A stretch of DNA of 64,000 nt from Escherichia coli (GCF_048403405.1 NZ_CP183129.1); one strand, 5' to 3'. Shown: positions 1,612 through 32,807, counted from the first letter of the stretch. A program made the numbers and translations. Notes: generated by a model from the letters alone, not told the origin.

Positions 1612-1909
1612 AAAAACTCCTTAATACTGATAACCTGGTGCACCATACACACGTTCCTGGAGAAAACTACTTTTTTGATAGGGTTGAAGGTGGCTGGATG
1701 TCTAAAATAAACATTGCTTCATATGTTCAACTATGAGTTAATGACTGCGTCGGTTTGAAGAACAGACGATATACGAAGTAGTTTACTAAAGCAGTTCTCA
1801 TTTCAGGTGTTATTCACTTATTCCTTCTTTGAGTCTCTCCAATTAAGTACGAAGTCGTTTCTGTTATGCAAACCATTTATGCCGAAAGGCTCAAGTTAAG
1901 GAATGTAGA

Positions 1910-2125
1910 ATGTCAAATAAAATGACTGGTTTAGTAAAATGGTTTAACGCTGATAAAGGTTTCGGCTTTATTTCTCCTGTTGATGGTAGTAAAGATGTGT
2001 TTGTGCATTTTTCTGCGATTCAGAATGATAATTATCGAACCTTATTTGAAGGTCAAAAGGTTACCTTCTCTATAGAGAGTGGTGCTAAAGGTCCTGCAGC
2101 AGCAAATGTCATCATTACTGATTAA
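1910..2125 (+). CDS. cspB: cold-shock protein, CspB-like
   Basis: 71 aa, [38 protein letters not shown]... with RNP motifs; long AT-rich 5-prime UTR; terminator downstream. Confidence 0.85.
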
Positions 2126-3971: not shown

Positions 3972-4999
<1,028 letters not shown>

Positions 5000-5362
5000 A
5001 TTAATATTAAATCGGATTATTTTTAGCGCTGAATGTGAAATTTAAATAAAAAGGACTCTTCCATGAGTCAAAATCCTTGAAATCTTAAGGGTAAGATAAA
5101 AGGTCATTAGACAGAATGACACGTTTTATTAATAAATAAAGCTATTGTTTCATTCGTGTGTTTTTCTTTACAAAAGTAATCCTTGCTATGGTTGGTTAAT
5201 CATGCGTTAATGGTGTTCTGGTTTGTTACAAAATTATCTGAAGCAGTCATTGTTATAATTTTATTATTTGTACCTCTTGAGATTTCCTTGTTGGTTTTTC
5301 TCTCTGATATTTTTTTTCGGACCATTCTGCCCAAGGGCTAACTTCTTCAAAAGGTAATAATG

Positions 5363-5575
5363 ATGTCTAACAAAATGACTGGTTTAGTGAAATGGTTTAA
5401 CCCTGAAAAAGGTTTTGGTTTCATCACGCCGAAAGATGGTAGCAAAGATGTGTTTGTCCATTTCTCAGCTATTCAGAGCAACGATTTCAAAACGTTAACT
5501 GAGAATCAGGAAGTCGAATTTGGTATTGAGAACGGACCTAAAGGCCCCGCGGCTGTTCATGTTGTGGCACTTTGA
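5363..5575 (+). CDS. cspI: cold-shock protein, CspI-like
   Basis: 70 aa, [43 protein letters not shown]...; long AT-rich leader. Confidence 0.85.
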
Positions 5576-5775
5576 GGTAGATAATATTACAAACCATATT
5601 CACTTTAGATGCCCGTGTTGCCATGGTTCTCAGTATAGAACATCATCTTTTGATGTTTCTGACAGGAATCCTTTCGGGGCAAAATGTATCTTTTGTAAAT
5701 CAATGATGATTACATTTGATAATATTTCACAATACTTAAATGTTAGCCGTCTATCGTTAGATTTAAGAAAGTGAA

Positions 5776-22398: not shown

Positions 22399-25850
<3,452 letters not shown>

Positions 25851-26572: not shown

Positions 26573-26581
26573 GGAGTGGAT

Positions 26582-28987
26582 ATGGCAGCAGTAAAAATCT
26601 CAGGTGTGCTGAAAGATGGTGCGGGAAAACCAATACAGAACTGCACTATTCAACTGAAGGCAAAGCGTAACAGCACCACGGTACTGGTGAACACGGTGGC
26701 CTCTGAAAATCCGGATGAAGCCGGGCGTTACAGCATGGATGTTGAGTATGGCCAGTACAGCGTTATCCTGCTTGTTGAAGGTTTTCCGCCTTCACATGCC
26801 GGAACCATTACCGTCTATGAAGGTTCCAGACCAGGTACGCTGAATGATTTTCTCGGTGCCATGACGGAAGATGATGTCATGCCGGAGGCATTGCGTCGTT
26901 TTGAGGAAATGGTGGAAGAAGCGGCACGCAACGCCGAAGCCGCCTCTCAGAGCGCAGCGGCGGCAAAGAAATCCGAAACTGCAGCGGCATCATCAAAGAA
27001 CGCGGCGAAAACCTCAGAAACGAATGCAGCTAATAGTGCACAGGCGGCAGCGACCTCAAAGACTGCATCGGCAAACTCCGCGACAGCAGCCAAAAAATCA
27101 GAAACCAACGCGAAAAATAGCGAGACAGCCGCAAAGACGAGCGAAACCAACGCAAAGTCCAGCCAGACGGCAGCGAAAACCAGCGAAACGAATGCCAAAG
27201 CCAGTGAAACTGCGGCAAAAAACAGCCAGGTTGCAGCAGCCCAAAGCGAGAGCGCGGCAGCCGGTTCTGCGACTTCAGCAGCTGGATCAGCAACTGCTGC
27301 GGCTAACAGCCAGAAAGCTGCGAAGACGAGTGAAACTAACGCAAAGTCCAGCCAGACGGCAGCGAAGACCAGCGAAACGAATGCCAAAGCCAGTGAAACT
27401 GCGGCGAAAAGCAGTCAGGATGCAGCGGCCCAAAGCGAGAGTGCCGCAGCCAGTTCTGCAAGCGCGGCGGCTGCTTCTGCCACTGCATCAGCTAACAGTC
27501 AAAAAGCAGCAAAAACCAGTGAAACCAACGCAAAGGCGAGCGAGACTGCGGCGGCGAACTCGGCGCAAGCATCGGCAGCAAGCCAGACAGCAGCTAAAGC
27601 AAGTGAAGACGCAGCCAGAGAGTATGCAAGCCAGGCAGCGGAGCCGTATAAACAAGTTTTGCAGCCGTTGCCCGATGTGTGGATACCGTTTAATGATTCA
27701 CTGGATATGATTACGGGCTTTTCGCCATCATATAAAAAAATTGTTATTGGCGACGATGAAATAACAATGCCTGGCGACAAGATTGTAAAGTTTAAACGCG
27801 CATCGAAAGCAACTTACATTAATAAATCTGGTGTGCTGACAGAGGCTGCCATTGACGAGCCACGATTTGAACGTGATGGCCTGCTTATTGAGGGGCAAAG
27901 AACTAACCTGCTAATCAATTCAACAAATCCGACTAAATGGAACAAGTCGTCAAATATGATCTTAAGTGCATCAGGTGTAGATGATTTCGGATTCCAGTAC
28001 GCAAAATTTACATTAAAACCAGAAATGGTAGGGCAAATTTCAGCGATTAACATAGTAACCGTTTCCGGCAGTAAAGGTTTTGATGTAACAGGCGGAGAAA
28101 AGTATGTAACCATATCATGCAGGGTGCAAAGTGGCACTCCAAATTTAAGATGCCGATTACGATTTGAAAACTATGATGGTTCTACCTACACATTCTTAGG
28201 TGACGCTTACTTAAATACGACAGATTTATCTATTGATAAGACGGGTGGTGCCGCTAATCGCATTACTGCAAGGGCTGTTAAAGATGAAGCAAGCAAATGG
28301 ATCTTTTTTGAGGCGACAATTAAGGCACTTGATACAGAAAATATGATAGGTGGAATGGTTCAGTATGCCCCGGCAAAAGGAGTGGGCACTGGCGCGGATG
28401 ATTATATTTATATTGCGACCCCTCAAGTTGAAGGTGGGGCGTGCGCTTCATCGTTTATTATAACAGGCGCATCCCCTGTAACACGCGCCAGCGATATTGT
28501 AACGGTCCCCATTTCTCTAAATTGGTGCAATCCCGCTATTAGTTCATTAGCAGAAGTTAATACCAATTGGGATGAATCGCCAAACAAAGAAGGTAGCGCA
28601 CGTATTCTTAATATTTCCACTACGGGAGATACAACTGAAATTGCAGATGAAAGTTATATGTATTTGGGGTATACATCTTTGGGAGCACGCGCAATCATTA
28701 CAAATGGTAAAGGCACTAAAATAGAATATAAAAGCGTTATAGAACGACCAGAGAGAAAAAGCATTATCGGCTTTAGATTCACAGAAAGTCGAGAATTGTG
28801 TGTTGTGGTTAACGGTAATATTGGTGCTAAGGTAGTTTCTCCTTATAAAAAACACAAATATACAGGAGGCTTCATTAATATTGGTGGTCAATCATCATCC
28901 GGCAACCGTCACCTATTTGGACACGTTCGAAATCTGCGTATTTGGCACAAGGCATTGACTGATGCTCAGATGGGGGAGTCAATCTAA
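26582..28987 (+). CDS. stf: side tail fibre protein Stf with a replaced, low-GC C-terminal receptor-binding module
   Basis: N-terminus MAAVKISGVLKDGAGKPIQNCTIQLKAKRNSTT... matches recalled lambda Stf; Ala/Ser/Thr-rich repeats; C-terminal ~440 aa of lower GC with a possible lectin-like motif. Confidence 0.85.
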   Translation: MAAVKISGVLKDGAGKPIQNCTIQLKAKRNSTTVLVNTVASENPDEAGRYSMDVEYGQYSVILLVEGFPPSHAGTITVYEGSRPGTLNDFLGAMTEDDVMPEALRRFEEMVEEAARNAEAASQSAAAAKKSETAAASSKNAAKTSETNAANSAQAAATSKTASANSATAAKKSETNAKNSETAAKTSETNAKSSQTAAKTSETNAKASETAAKNSQVAAAQSESAAAGSATSAAGSATAAANSQKAAKTSETNAKSSQTAAKTSETNAKASETAAKSSQDAAAQSESAAASSASAAAASATASANSQKAAKTSETNAKASETAAANSAQASAASQTAAKASEDAAREYASQAAEPYKQVLQPLPDVWIPFNDSLDMITGFSPSYKKIVIGDDEITMPGDKIVKFKRASKATYINKSGVLTEAAIDEPRFERDGLLIEGQRTNLLINSTNPTKWNKSSNMILSASGVDDFGFQYAKFTLKPEMVGQISAINIVTVSGSKGFDVTGGEKYVTISCRVQSGTPNLRCRLRFENYDGSTYTFLGDAYLNTTDLSIDKTGGAANRITARAVKDEASKWIFFEATIKALDTENMIGGMVQYAPAKGVGTGADDYIYIATPQVEGGACASSFIITGASPVTRASDIVTVPISLNWCNPAISSLAEVNTNWDESPNKEGSARILNISTTGDTTEIADESYMYLGYTSLGARAIITNGKGTKIEYKSVIERPERKSIIGFRFTESRELCVVVNGNIGAKVVSPYKKHKYTGGFINIGGQSSSGNRHLFGHVRNLRIWHKALTDAQMGESI
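27100..27560. repeat. about 2.4 tandem copies of a 189-bp (63-codon) in-frame repeat inside stf
   Basis: cgcaaagtccagccagacggcagcgaa(a/g)accagcgaaacgaatgccaaagccagtgaaactgcggc recurs at 27151 and 27340. Confidence 0.7.
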
Positions 28988-29268
28988 TGAAAGATTTAAC
29001 ACTCAAATTTGCCGACAGGGCCGACTTTTCGGCCTTTATGGGAAGTATTGGCTATTATAATGACGAGTCGATGCAGGATGATATTCTGATTGATGTGATA
29101 GGTAACGTGTACAAAGAAACCGGAGAGCTGACTGAAGATGGCGAACCGGTATGTGTTAAGGAAGATGGATATTTTGTAAACGTGCGCATCATTAAGGATA
29201 CGCAAATATCGTCATTATTCGATGAATACGTGGTTGCTGTTGAGCATCAACTTCGTGGCTGGATGTGA
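28987..29268 (+). CDS. ORF-A: small acidic protein (93 aa), function unknown
   Basis: ATG overlaps the stf stop (TAATG); about 19 Asp/Glu versus 8 Lys/Arg; no family recognised. Confidence 0.5.
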   Translation: MKDLTLKFADRADFSAFMGSIGYYNDESMQDDILIDVIGNVYKETGELTEDGEPVCVKEDGYFVNVRIIKDTQISSLFDEYVVAVEHQLRGWM

Positions 29269-29277
29269 GGAAGAAAA

Positions 29278-30318
29278 ATGGCTACATCGACAGTAATTCC
29301 TGATGACATCAAAACGCTAAAATCCGACGTTAGCAAATTAAAAAACGATCAAGGAAGCTACGCAACAAAATTATATGTAGACAGCAAAGATGAAATCGTT
29401 GGTGACTGGTCTGCTTCATGGTATCAGCAGGTATTGCCAACTAGCGGAGCTATATTTGGGAGAAAACTCCGCTCAACTCACAGGACGGCAGGTGTTGAGG
29501 ATGCGTATTGCGAACTATACCTCAAAAAATGGATAGACAGTCCAGGTAACGCAATGGCGCGCCTTAACCTGAACGATAACGGGACAAACATTTGCTGGGA
29601 CTTTACCAACCTTTATGGCGGTACGATGATTTTTCCCGGTGACAGCGGATACCTCAAAATGGGTAACTGCCTTATGTCATACAGCAAGCGTGGAAGTAAC
29701 GCGCTTATTAAATTTGATTACACCGACACATTACAGATCAAATATGCCAATCATGGGTCAACCATGACATTAAACACACAGGGAACCGCTTATGCTGGTG
29801 TTACTGCTCAATTGTGGGGCAACTCCAGCCGTCCTGTTGTTTATGAAGTCGGTGTTGATGGTGGCGCTTATATGTTCTATGCGCAAAAAAATACCGATAA
29901 CACCTATATGTTAAGCGTTAATGGTGCATGTCATGCCACCGCATTTAACCAGCATTCCGACCGGGATCTGAAAGACAACATTCAGGTGATCGATAATGCA
30001 ACCGACCGCATCCGTAAAATGAACGGCTATACATACACGCTTAAAGAAAACGGTATGCCCTATGCTGGTGTCATTGCACAGGAAGCTCTGGAAGCAATCC
30101 CAGAAGTTGTAGGTTCCGCAATGAAATATCAGGACGGCGCAAGCGGATCGGAAGGTGAAGAAGGTGAACGTTATTACACAGTAGATTATTCTGGTGTTAC
30201 TGGCTTGCTTGTTCAGGTAGCCAGAGAGTCAGACGACAGAATAACAGCACTGGAAGAAGAAAACGCAGAATTAAGACAAAGATTATCTGCAATTGAGGCG
30301 GCGCTTGCGTCTAAATAA
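29278..30318 (+). CDS. ORF-B: fibre/tailspike-like protein (346 aa) with C-terminal intramolecular-chaperone (peptidase S74-like) domain
   Basis: RBS GGAAG; C-terminal SDRDLKDNIQ...YTYTLKENGMPYAGVIAQEALEAIPEVV...coiled-coil ITALEEENAELRQRLSAIEAAL, the pattern of autoproteolytic fibre chaperone domains; hairpin aggggccgagcgcccc after the stop. Confidence 0.6.
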   Translation: MATSTVIPDDIKTLKSDVSKLKNDQGSYATKLYVDSKDEIVGDWSASWYQQVLPTSGAIFGRKLRSTHRTAGVEDAYCELYLKKWIDSPGNAMARLNLNDNGTNICWDFTNLYGGTMIFPGDSGYLKMGNCLMSYSKRGSNALIKFDYTDTLQIKYANHGSTMTLNTQGTAYAGVTAQLWGNSSRPVVYEVGVDGGAYMFYAQKNTDNTYMLSVNGACHATAFNQHSDRDLKDNIQVIDNATDRIRKMNGYTYTLKENGMPYAGVIAQEALEAIPEVVGSAMKYQDGASGSEGEEGERYYTVDYSGVTGLLVQVARESDDRITALEEENAELRQRLSAIEAALASK

Positions 30319-30360
30319 TATCAAGGGGCCGAGCGCCCCGTTTTATTGGGTAGGATGAAA

Positions 30361-30654
30361 ATGGATATAACACCTTTCCTTCATGCGCTTTGTGCTGTGG
30401 CTGCGCAGCTACTGGTTGGTCTTTTTACCGGGAACTGGGCTTACGGGGCGATAGCCGGTTGTACGTTCTTCATTGCGCGTGAACACACCCAGGCGGAATA
30501 TCGCTGGATTGAAATGTTTGGGCATGGCAAGAGGATTAACATGCCGTGGTGGGGCGGTTTTGATCCGCGCGTGTGGGATGTGGCAAGCCTGATGGATTTT
30601 GCTGTGCCGGTGGTGGCGTGTCTGCTGGTCTGGCTGTTGGTTAATCGTGGGTGA
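30361..30654 (+). CDS. ORF-C: small membrane protein (97 aa; 2-3 predicted transmembrane segments)
   Basis: Hydrophobic stretches ALCAVAAQLLVGLF, GAIAGCTFFIA, VPVVACLLVWLLV; AGGA 5 nt upstream of ATG; start could also be 30346 or 30355. Confidence 0.5.
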   Translation: MDITPFLHALCAVAAQLLVGLFTGNWAYGAIAGCTFFIAREHTQAEYRWIEMFGHGKRINMPWWGGFDPRVWDVASLMDFAVPVVACLLVWLLVNRG

Positions 30655-30664
30655 AAAAAGGTGA

Positions 30665-30784
30665 GCTGTATATGCAACGGAGGAAGAAACCCCGTTGCTG
30701 GAAGCCTGGAAAAAGTATCGGGTGTTGCTGAACCGTGTTGATACGTCAACTGCACAGGATATTGAATGGCCAGCACTGCCGTAG
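30665..30784 (+). pseudogene. tfa: 3-prime remnant of tail-fibre assembly gene tfa (last ~36 codons only)
   Basis: Frame opening right after the ORF-C stop reads [39 protein letters not shown], matching the recalled lambda Tfa C-terminus; no start codon or N-terminal domain. Confidence 0.7.
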
Positions 30785-30881
30785 GGTAAAACATATAAAT
30801 TCTATAATTAGATGTATCTTTCCATTTACGGCAAGGAAGGGGGCTTGGAAGACGTAAAGCATCTCACACCGAGATTATTTT

Positions 30882-31472
30882 TTATATGTCAGGTGTCTGA
30901 AGTTTTGCTTTGGCTCTTAAAATGGTTTGCCGCGAGGTTTTGAATTCCCGGGCAATGGCACTTATACTTACACCTGACTTAATTCGTTCGAATACCACCT
31001 GTTTCTGTTCTTCATTTAACACAGGTGGTCGACCAAAACGTTTCCCTGCGCCCCGGGCTCTTACTATCCCGGAATGAGTGCGTTCAAGTAAAAGGTCTCG
31101 TTCAAATTCAGCGACTGCTGAAATTACTTGCATCATCATTTTTCCTGTTGGACTGGTCAGGTCAATGCCCCCCAATGCTAAGCAATGCACTCTGATACCT
31201 GTTTCGGTCAGTTGTTCCACTGTTTTCCTGATATCCATTGCATTACAACCAAGGCGATCCAGTTTTGTCACAATCAATTGATCACCACATTTCAGGCGAG
31301 CAAGCAACCGGTTAAAACCAGGACGCTCACTGGTTGCTGCTGAGCCGCTAATGTGTTCTTCGATTATTTGCTGAGGTTTGATTTTAAAACCTGCACTTTC
31401 GATTTCCCGGCGTTGATTTTCGGTGGTCTGATCCAGCGTTGATATCCGACAGTAAGCAAAAATTCGAGACAT
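30882..31472 (-). CDS. pinQ: serine recombinase (invertase/resolvase family), PinQ/PinR-like
   Basis: 196 aa; catalytic-region motif YCRISTLDQ; C-terminal helix-turn-helix; same position as pinQ next to tfa and ydfK in K-12 Qin. Confidence 0.75.
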
Positions 31473-31788
31473 AGTGAGACTCTATACGAAATTGGTGTTC
31501 ATATCATAATGCATCTCAGAAAATAATTTTGATTATTTTTGTGCATGTTTGTATGTACACGTTCGAAAATAAACGAATGCGTATGCAACCCCGTAATTTT
31601 GGTGAGACCCAAAATCGATTTTGTGAAAAATGGCTTTAACTCGGTTTGTTTTTCGAGTTCCGGGCGGACTCAAGGAAGAAGAATAGTGTTGCGTGTTATT
31701 TTAACCAGATTTCAAGTTGTTTGGTCGTGGAAAAGTGGAGCAAAATGTTGTTAAAGTGGAAAAATGATAAAAAAGTAAGTTTATTATA

Positions 31789-32022
31789 TTACATTTTACC
31801 ATTTAAATTTTGGTTGTCTTTAAGAACTGATATCGCTGTTTGTAATAATTCTTTGTTATCCAGCCATGACTTTTTCTTTATGTTTCCTTCAATGTAATCA
31901 AGCAATGTTCTGGTATTGATAGGTCTTCCCTGTTTTGCCACTTCCACGACAGCATCTCCCAGGATAATTCTGACTTCAGGAAGCTGCGCAGGGAACCACT
32001 TTAGGGTGTCTTTTGATTTCAT
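31789..32022 (-). CDS. ydfK: YdfK/YnaE-family cold-shock-inducible prophage protein
   Basis: 77 aa from MKSKDTLKWFPAQLPEVRIILGDAVVEVAKQGRP...; AT-rich leader upstream (higher coordinates). Confidence 0.75.
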   Translation of the reverse strand: MKSKDTLKWFPAQLPEVRIILGDAVVEVAKQGRPINTRTLLDYIEGNIKKKSWLDNKELLQTAISVLKDNQNLNGKM

Positions 32023-32807
32023 GAATATATTCCTTAAAATATTATTGATTTTCATTGCGATATTGTATGTCTGATTCAGGATATGTTGACTTATACATCG
32101 GTTTTGTCTGGGTTATTGGATATGCCAATCCCTAATTTTATTAGAGCATGACTAAAAATGCTGAATATGATAAGGAGCGAAGTGATTATCAGTATGCTGT
32201 TCATATAGCCTCGAATTAGTAATGTGTTATATATGATATAGTTGACAATTTTTATCCTGGGTGTTCTTAAAGTTCGTAGATAAACATTGTCGTTTCAGGT
32301 ATACAGGAATGCTAACAGATGGCGGCAAAAATCAGGCGGTTTATGGCGCAAGCTGAAGTGGCAACTGCAAACTATCTTATGCAGAGACTCTACACGGATT
32401 GGGTTTAAAAGTATACATAGATAACAGTTTTTATCTGAAGAAGAAAAATATCAAGGTGATATAGCCTATATGCCTTTGATGCGGAGGAATGAATGTGATG
32501 GGAGTGATGTATCTGAATAGTTGAAAAACCGCAGACACGCCTTATGCAAGAACGTGCTGCGGTTGGCTGGTAAATTTTTCGATAGTGCGAGTATTGAATG
32601 ATTTCCAGCCGTTATTGATTTTACGCGTAACTCCATGAAAAAACTACTTATCTGTTGAGGAGTTTTTTTGGGGCATATATGGGACAGAAATAGGCCCCAG
32701 ATAGACACTGAGATCGAACTTAGGATGCTTTTTAAAAAATGCAACTATCTGAAAAAACCTAGAAAACGCCAAGGAAACCACAGGATGGGAAAAAACACCT
32801 GTGAATT

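Follow-up and report, generated by a model that had tools for sequence, protein, structure and literature searches.

The window, i.e., the whole 64-kb stretch of Escherichia coli DNA that was analysed, carries within a prophage a gene for a small serine recombinase, which lies between the remnant of a tail fiber assembly gene and a cold-shock gene. The genes of the locus, with the evidence for each assignment, are listed below.

30674–30785, plus strand: 3′ remnant of tfa, last 36 codons and stop (tblastn)
30882–31472, minus strand: pinQ, 196-aa small serine recombinase of resolvase (TnpR) type (ORF, Pfam, homology)
31789–32055, minus strand: ydfK-like cold-shock gene, just outside the element described further on (ORF and annotated genomes)

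A first, sequence-only reading of this DNA had recognised a 196-aa serine recombinase at the place held by pinQ in K-12, beside the tfa remnant, and both the ORF at 30882–31472 on the minus strand and the K-12 gene order confirmed it. The span proposed at that time (30785–31472) does contain a real gene, but its start at 30785 takes in the 97-bp spacer that lies 3′ of the tfa stop. The encoded protein shows the Pfam domains Resolvase (E 2.5e-36) and HTH_7. It is 99% identical to K-12 PinQ and 100% identical to the Pin proteins of the deposited phages Tritos, 2H10, HannyBb and mEp460, which are among eleven deposited phage genomes encoding a 99–100% identical protein. The gene is indeed the already known pinQ.

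In near-identical genomes the gene order is tfa remnant, pinQ, ydfK, ynfT and truncated ydfJ, as at the Qin site of K-12, with ydfJ being the prophage insertion site. The same 5.8-kb fibre–pin stretch, annotated as tail fibre, tfa fragment, pinQ, ydfK, ynfT and truncated ydfJ, was found in about 50 complete genomes. The tfa remnant (nt 30674–30781) is 94% identical by tblastn to residues 156–191 of TfaQ, i.e., to its last 36, its DNA matches the 3′ end of lambda tfa, and near-identical genomes label it "tail fiber assembly protein, missing N-terminus". It forms the mosaic junction at which the fibre genes meet the pinQ module. The homology of tfa to phages that lack pin stops at about nt 30790, and the 48 bp at 30791–30838, between the tfa stop and the left repeat relic (see below), were found only in pin-bearing phages and genomes.

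The fibre locus itself (nt 26576–30654) is of a non-K-12 type, coding for an 803-aa Stf with long Ala/Ser/Thr-rich repeats, followed by a 93-aa ORF, a 346-aa fibre protein of the Peptidase_S74 (intramolecular chaperone) type and a 102-aa ORF. Phage Tritos has the fibre set of the window (Stf, 93-aa ORF, 346-aa fibre protein and small ORF), with pin, a ydfK-like gene and int downstream, while in phage 2H10 complete stf and tfa genes converge on pin. The tail-tip gene J (nt 22411–25850) appears frameshifted near 25500–25570, its long ORF ending out of frame; a separate 93-aa ORF follows J, and a near-identical genome annotates gpJ as "frameshifted". The prophage of the window is probably defective.

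Search for an invertible segment and comparison with Din-type invertases

The sequence-only reading had seen no invertible segment and had suggested a search for flanking inverted repeats of 17–34 bp. Once run, this search gave nothing above chance: between 20 and 36 kb, inverted repeats were limited to short, imperfect and scattered pairs at chance level. The longest of them (23742–23770 and 31244–31272, 76% complementary) links the J gene to the interior of pin and was rejected as meaningless. The Din-type crossover site TTNTCNNAAACCNNGGTTTNNGANAA, admitting up to three mismatches, had zero matches across the 64 kb. Likewise, tblastn with the Stf and Tfa proteins found no similar sequence on the minus strand, in line with the earlier remark that no oppositely oriented fibre or tfa segment is present. 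With no invertible segment alongside it, the gene can rightly be called an orphan.

Din invertible segments are bounded by two inverted 26-bp crossover sites, each made of 12-bp inverted half-sites around a 2-bp core; the invertase gene adjoins the segment, a crossover site lying at its 5′ end, the alternative ends of the fibre gene are encoded on the opposite strand, and the 5′ part of the invertase gene contains a Fis-dependent recombinational enhancer. In the window pin converges on tfa, so that its upstream end points to ydfK and not to the fibre genes; gin and pinE have the opposite orientation relative to theirs. Indeed, none of the defining features of Din invertases that could be tested was found at the pinQ locus.

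The designation "Pin-type invertase" did not survive the comparison either. The identity of PinQ to Gin-like invertases is about 38–44%, i.e., 38–39% to the invertases of Mu-like and P2-like phages and 44% to a Gin-like fragment in the prophage fragment L019, and its close relatives are transposon and plasmid resolvases accompanied by res sites, Tn3-family transposases and 38-bp repeats (see below). Gin, Cin, Pin and Hin share about 60% identity or more with each other. Among solved structures the top relative of PinQ was Gin (E 2.7e-29), followed by gamma-delta and Tn3 resolvases (E about 1e-22).

The pin modules of phages Tritos and 2H10 also have no invertible segment, so that its absence is a property of the pin module and not the result of damage to the prophage of the window. 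No invertible segment was found in Erwinia phage LS-2018a, which carries a 61% identical homologue. In L019, an IMG/VR prophage fragment from a relative, pinQ is separated by about 500 bp from an invertible, G-like fibre segment. Its 38-nt repeats of gix type (TTATCTAAAACCTCGGTTTACAGGAA; nt 2009–2046 and 5058–5095, 92% complementary) enclose opposed pairs of stf end and tfa, and a Gin-like invertase of its own (nt 1764–1982, minus strand), truncated after 72 residues, lies between the segment and the tfa remnant/pinQ module. Since this segment comes with its own Gin-like invertase, PinQ is not its cognate enzyme; Din-type systems are thus cassettes distinct from the pinQ module, with the 3′ end of tfa as the point where the two meet.

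Relatives of PinQ and their transposon context

Protein searches retrieved thousands of PinQ homologues, and many of the best 120 cluster representatives (77–99% identical) were plasmid-borne, in E. coli, Klebsiella, Providencia, Salmonella and Shewanella. At the DNA level the gene was recovered from 1801 plasmid records, and a scan of one genome per species yielded 80 loci, with 60–99% identity, in gamma- and beta-proteobacteria. Homologues with 60–85% identity are spread over about 1800 plasmid records and many genomes of other bacteria.

The upstream regions were compared by right-aligning the 135 bp that precede each start codon. Three dyads were recognised in the clade. Site I (TGTMCGAAA-N8-TTTCGKACA) lies at −113 to −118 and was present with three mismatches at most in 75 of the 83 loci encoding an arginine at position 76 (hereafter Arg-type; median one mismatch). 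Site II, at about −75, is made of the same half-sites with an N14 spacer, whereas site III abuts the start codon, and a TATAAT box is found between sites II and III. The subsites of Tn3 res measure about 28, 34 and 25 bp and follow each other as I, II and III, the last of them adjoining tnpR. Judged by the sequence, the three-dyad upstream region of the clade matches the layout of a Tn3-type res; the latter is described as binding three resolvase dimers (PMC2602789). In the most distant homologue, that of the Erwinia phage, the half-site reads TTTAGTAC in all three dyads, a co-variation as expected for a protein-binding site. The 8-bp centre of site I (about −104 to −97, loci L031–L113) reads CCGGTCGG or its reverse complement CCGACCGG, depending on the homologue. 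In some members of the family the asymmetric core of the crossover site is therefore inverted with respect to sites II and III.

A Tn3-family transposase gene was present beside the recombinase gene in 23 loci, in some divergent, in some upstream on the same strand and in others downstream. In virulence plasmids of Klebsiella the recombinase gene comes after the gene for a 979-aa protein that has the Pfam domain DDE_Tnp_Tn3 (E 2e-132), and PGAP labels in relatives place a "Tn3 family transposase" next to a "recombinase family protein". The transposons of these relatives are bounded by 38-bp repeats, with consensus GGGGTCCGCTTGGAAAACGGAAAATATCCYACGCTAAG, that delimit elements of about 5.9 to 6.8 kb. 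A text search with the repeat sequence returned no paper naming them, and the plasmid annotations give "Tn3 family transposase" only.

The relative L031 is a mini-element of 852 bp in which two terminal repeats enclose nothing but res and, after it, tnpR; it has no transposase. It occupies nt 4845–5696, and its intact res about nt 4935–5059, of its record, the E. coli IncF plasmid pHS13-1-IncF, between tsh and ABC iron-transporter genes. Its two repeats differ at 8 of 38 positions, and its flanks (TTAGC and AAGGA) form no direct repeat.

Probable relics of a Tn3-type element around pinQ

When the window was compared with these relatives, the following features were found around and within pinQ.

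30834–30838: AGGAA, left copy of a putative 5-bp target-site duplication, assuming that the left repeat begins at the GGGGG run at 30839
30836–30873, plus strand: worn 38-bp terminal repeat of Tn3-family type on the 3′ side of pin, pointing inward; 25/38 positions match the consensus
31245–31247, minus strand: codon 76, TGT (Cys), at the equivalent of R71 in Tn3 and gamma-delta resolvases
31484–31503, minus strand: relic of res site III, TATGAACACCAATTTCGTAT, nearly intact and overlapping the 5′ untranslated region
31514–31545, minus strand: relic of res site II, TGCACAAAA-N14-TTTCTGAGA, with the CG core of both half-sites mutated
31560–31585, minus strand: relic of res site I (crossover site), CATACGCAT-TCGTTTAT-TTTCGAACG, with left half and centre degenerate
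31635–31672, minus strand: worn 38-bp terminal repeat of Tn3-family type upstream of res, pointing inward; 24/38 positions match the consensus
31673–31677: AGGAA, right copy of the putative target-site duplication, abutting the right-hand repeat

A scan of the 64 kb with the consensus repeat on both strands (at most 14 mismatches) gave just two matches, both of them flanking pin at homologous positions, against one match in total in 20 shuffles of the window used as a control. The right-hand relic agrees with the left repeat of L031 at 26/38 positions and is present in all 26 loci with cysteine at position 76 (hereafter Cys-type), while the left-hand relic aligns with the right repeat of L031. 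In a three-way alignment the window, the 85%-identical prophage branch L021 and L031 were collinear from repeat to repeat, and the element of the window has no Tn3-family transposase. The inverted repeats that flank pinQ are 38-bp transposon ends and not crossover sites.

Transposition of Tn3-family elements yields a 5-bp target duplication. The AGGAA pair is suggestive of such a duplication, although its left copy presupposes a particular start of the worn left repeat. An empty site, with the flanks joined and the element missing, was not spanned by any record among 5426 E. coli genomes and 50,697 phage records, so that both insertion and duplication are deduced from one locus type only. The spacer between the repeat relic and the res relic holds a perfect 14-bp palindrome, CAAAATCGATTTTG (nt 31610–31623), followed by ATTTTGG-N6-CCAAAAT; every prophage-type locus has kept this sequence, which the plasmid mini-element lacks.

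The sequence-only reading had left room for a site that the eye does not recognise. This proved to be the case, as the cognate site lies directly upstream of the gene, at about nt 31484–31585, and is a worn res of Tn3 type, a site for resolution and not for inversion. Wear is unequal along it. Site I, at the homologous offset −113, is mismatched at 6 of the 18 specified positions and retains its right half (TTTCGAACG); site II has four mismatches, against a median of one in the 83 Arg-type loci; site III has three, with two specified positions differing from L031, its nearest intact relative. The site I consensus has no match in the window, and a blastn-short search for a second copy of the upstream region returned chance matches only. 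Across the window res half-sites were not enriched (12 found, 29 expected).

The protein bears marks of wear as well. In alignments with Gin and gamma-delta, the motif DRLGR reads DRLGC in the window. Position 76 is Arg in 115 of the 120 cluster representatives and Cys in the other five, namely the PinQ/PinR cluster, its fragments and one E. coli cluster at 85% identity. Cys76 was found in 26/26 prophage-type loci and Arg in all plasmid, transposon and other-genome loci compared; the aligned codon of L031 is CGT, a single transition away from the TGT of the window. Tyr7, Arg9, Ser11 and Arg73 are kept in PinQ, and Glu39, aligned by hand to Tn3 D36, is invariant in a 21-sequence alignment of the clade. 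In Tn3 resolvase, the substitutions R71A and R71K abolish recombination and slow cleavage about 1000-fold, with binding and synapsis being kept (PMC2794168). By analogy PinQ may be catalytically impaired, a prediction that we regard as evenly poised.

Between the two Cys branches, i.e., the window and L021, dN was 0.076 and dS 0.199, giving an omega of 0.38. This is below neutrality (31 non-synonymous versus 23 synonymous changes; binomial p = 0.0015), and about six times the median of 0.066 (range 0.031–0.207) obtained from 25 Arg-type pairs of comparable dS. Constraint on PinQ is thus relaxed but real, and the protein probably still does something, though not the job of its ancestors. Its recognition helix reads TSRQTILRA, as compared with TTRQTILRV in the plasmid forms, and such a conservation would fit a retained DNA binding.

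Origin of pinQ and alternative readings

The reading that we prefer, with a probability of about three in four, is that pinQ is a decayed resolvase element of the mini Tn3-family type and has no segment to act upon in cis. pinQ would be the tnpR of a miniature element of about 835 bp, composed of terminal repeat, res, tnpR and terminal repeat, which would have inserted a single time between tfa and ydfK of an ancestral lambdoid phage and would since have been carried in Rac- and Qin-type prophages and in the deposited phages. In the ancestor, resolvase dimers would have bound the three dyads (res I, II and III) upstream of their own gene, resolving cointegrates or multimers that contained two directly repeated copies of res. 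As site II covers the −35 region and site III the transcript start, the ancestral protein probably repressed its own promoter too. What remains in the window would be an element from which the transposase has gone, with both repeats mutated at about one third of their positions, sites I and II eroded, no second copy of res and the equivalent of R71 replaced by Cys76. No invertible segment is found because, according to this reading, pinQ belongs to a worn resolvase cassette from which one key catalytic residue and most of the recombination site have gone; so decayed an element would be unable to recombine in cis, and there would be no invertible segment to find. Selection would still keep DNA binding, through autoregulation at site III or through related half-sites elsewhere.

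This reading builds on direct observations, i.e., the homology, the res sites and transposon context of the relatives, the relics and direct repeat of the window, the change from Arg to Cys and a dN/dS that is relaxed but not neutral. Several findings run against it, among them a published account of PinQ activity (see below) and the empty site that was looked for and not found. The sequence score is slightly better against Gin than against gamma-delta or Tn3 resolvase, which speaks against a resolvase ancestry, whereas a dN/dS below 1 and the identity of the protein in deposited phages speak against full decay. PinQ is, indeed, probably not functionless.

A different role for PinQ is already in print, namely that of an orphan enzyme acting elsewhere (PMC12529663). 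In that study Kirigo et al. (2025) described the previously uncharacterised PinQ as an active recombinase: its overproduction raised inversion of the P segment of e14 from 30% to 88%. This 1797-bp segment yields, upon inversion, a chimeric StfE2 that blocks adsorption of T2; deletion of pinQ lowered survival after T2 infection, and the effect was abolished by deleting stfP, stfE or e14 (PMC12529663). PinQ would accordingly be an active invertase in trans that has no segment of its own and flips the Din-type segments of other prophages, such as the 1.8-kb P segment, thereby switching tail-fibre-derived proteins that block T2 adsorption. The overproduction and deletion results favour this possibility, as do some purifying selection on PinQ and a direct comparison in which the clade res half-site TGTCCGAAACC and the e14 pix half-site TCTCCCAAACC shared 9 of 11 positions, a likeness that would make binding of PinQ to pix plausible. 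If PinQ itself is the catalyst of P inversion, Cys76 would not abolish catalysis.

Several points argue against this view. A pinE single mutant, with pinQ and pinR intact, was locked in one orientation (PMC12529663), which indicates that native PinQ is insufficient for inversion and fits PinE as the catalyst, with PinQ at most a modulator. The evidence in PMC12529663 consists of overexpression and knock-outs, without an in vitro assay, a catalytic mutant or a pinE-deleted background, and resolvases, Tn3 and catalytic residues go unmentioned. Moreover, the equivalent of Tn3 R71 is missing in PinQ, a gap of 4 bp separates the half-sites of the clade's site I, as against 2 bp in Din sites, and the window has no Din-type site and hence no assignable target. 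Altogether, inversion in trans by PinQ itself appears doubtful, though it deserves to be taken seriously.

Less likely still, and put forward tentatively, is that PinQ and PinR are domesticated resolvases which, having lost catalysis and the crossover site, would act as DNA-binding proteins on Din-type half-sites and bias the inversion that true invertases such as PinE carry out in other prophages. If so, a phage-defence switch would be controlled without any cutting of DNA by the controlling protein.

That PinQ is a still-active resolvase, resolving dimers of the phage or prophage at the site upstream of its gene, is very unlikely: the reading frame is complete, one can still recognise site III and the right half of site I, and the promoter has kept its −10 box, but the left half and centre of the crossover site are gone, the CG cores of both site II half-sites are lost, the catalytic Arg is a Cys and constraint is relaxed. 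The least probable origin, and a largely refuted one, is that of a true orphan Pin, i.e., a Din-type invertase whose invertible fibre segment was deleted when the present fibre genes recombined in: the gene does lie at the end of a fibre operon, as do the invertases of phage Mu and e14, and in L019 a G-like segment bounded by 38-nt repeats of gix type does lie some 500 bp away from pinQ, but that segment is accompanied by its own truncated Gin-like invertase, the 5′ end of pinQ faces away from the fibre genes, 2H10 (with complete stf and tfa) and Tritos (with the fibre set of the window) are equally segment-free, identity to Gin-like invertases is low at about 38–44%, and the repeats and res relics account for the locus without any deletion.

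The preferred reading of pinQ as a worn Tn3-type cassette appears to be new, since no paper that connects pinQ or pinR with elements of Tn3 type came up in a search of the literature on pinR, Tn3, resolvases and prophages. As a genome feature the finding is ordinary, and its modest interest lies in the origin of the gene and in its bearing on a recent mechanistic claim. Most E. coli genomes contain pinQ and pinR, which invariably bear the annotation "DNA invertase"; should the two genes be worn resolvase cassettes of Tn3 type, no invertible segment is to be expected beside them. For the 2025 claim that PinQ flips the P segment of e14, the missing catalytic Arg and the locked pinE mutant mark the weak point. 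The comparison also provides a definition of res site and terminal repeats for a large Tn3-family group, as yet without a name, on plasmids of Klebsiella and E. coli.

Three known systems serve for comparison. With the Din family (Gin of Mu, Cin of P1, PinE of e14, Hin) PinQ has in common the fold, the domain order and a position at the end of a tail-fibre operon, but its locus differs in lacking the 26-bp crossover sites and the invertible segment and in the direction of the gene, and the cognate site of its relatives is a three-part res instead of a simple site plus enhancer. With TnpR of the Tn3 family it shares the architecture of a small serine recombinase with an N-terminal catalytic and a C-terminal helix-turn-helix domain, and its system shares res half-sites like TGTCCGAAA and 38-bp terminal repeats of the form GGGG...ACGCTAAG; on the contrary, the catalytic set of Tn3 (Y6, R8, S10, D36, R68 and R71) is incomplete in PinQ, where the equivalent of R71 is Cys. 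The closest match is with PinQ and PinR of the K-12 prophages Qin and Rac, which have the same neighbours (tfa, and ydfK or ynaE) and the same ydfJ insertion site as the window: the left-hand fibre genes of the window differ from those of K-12, whereas Cys76 and the upstream relics are shared with K-12 PinQ.
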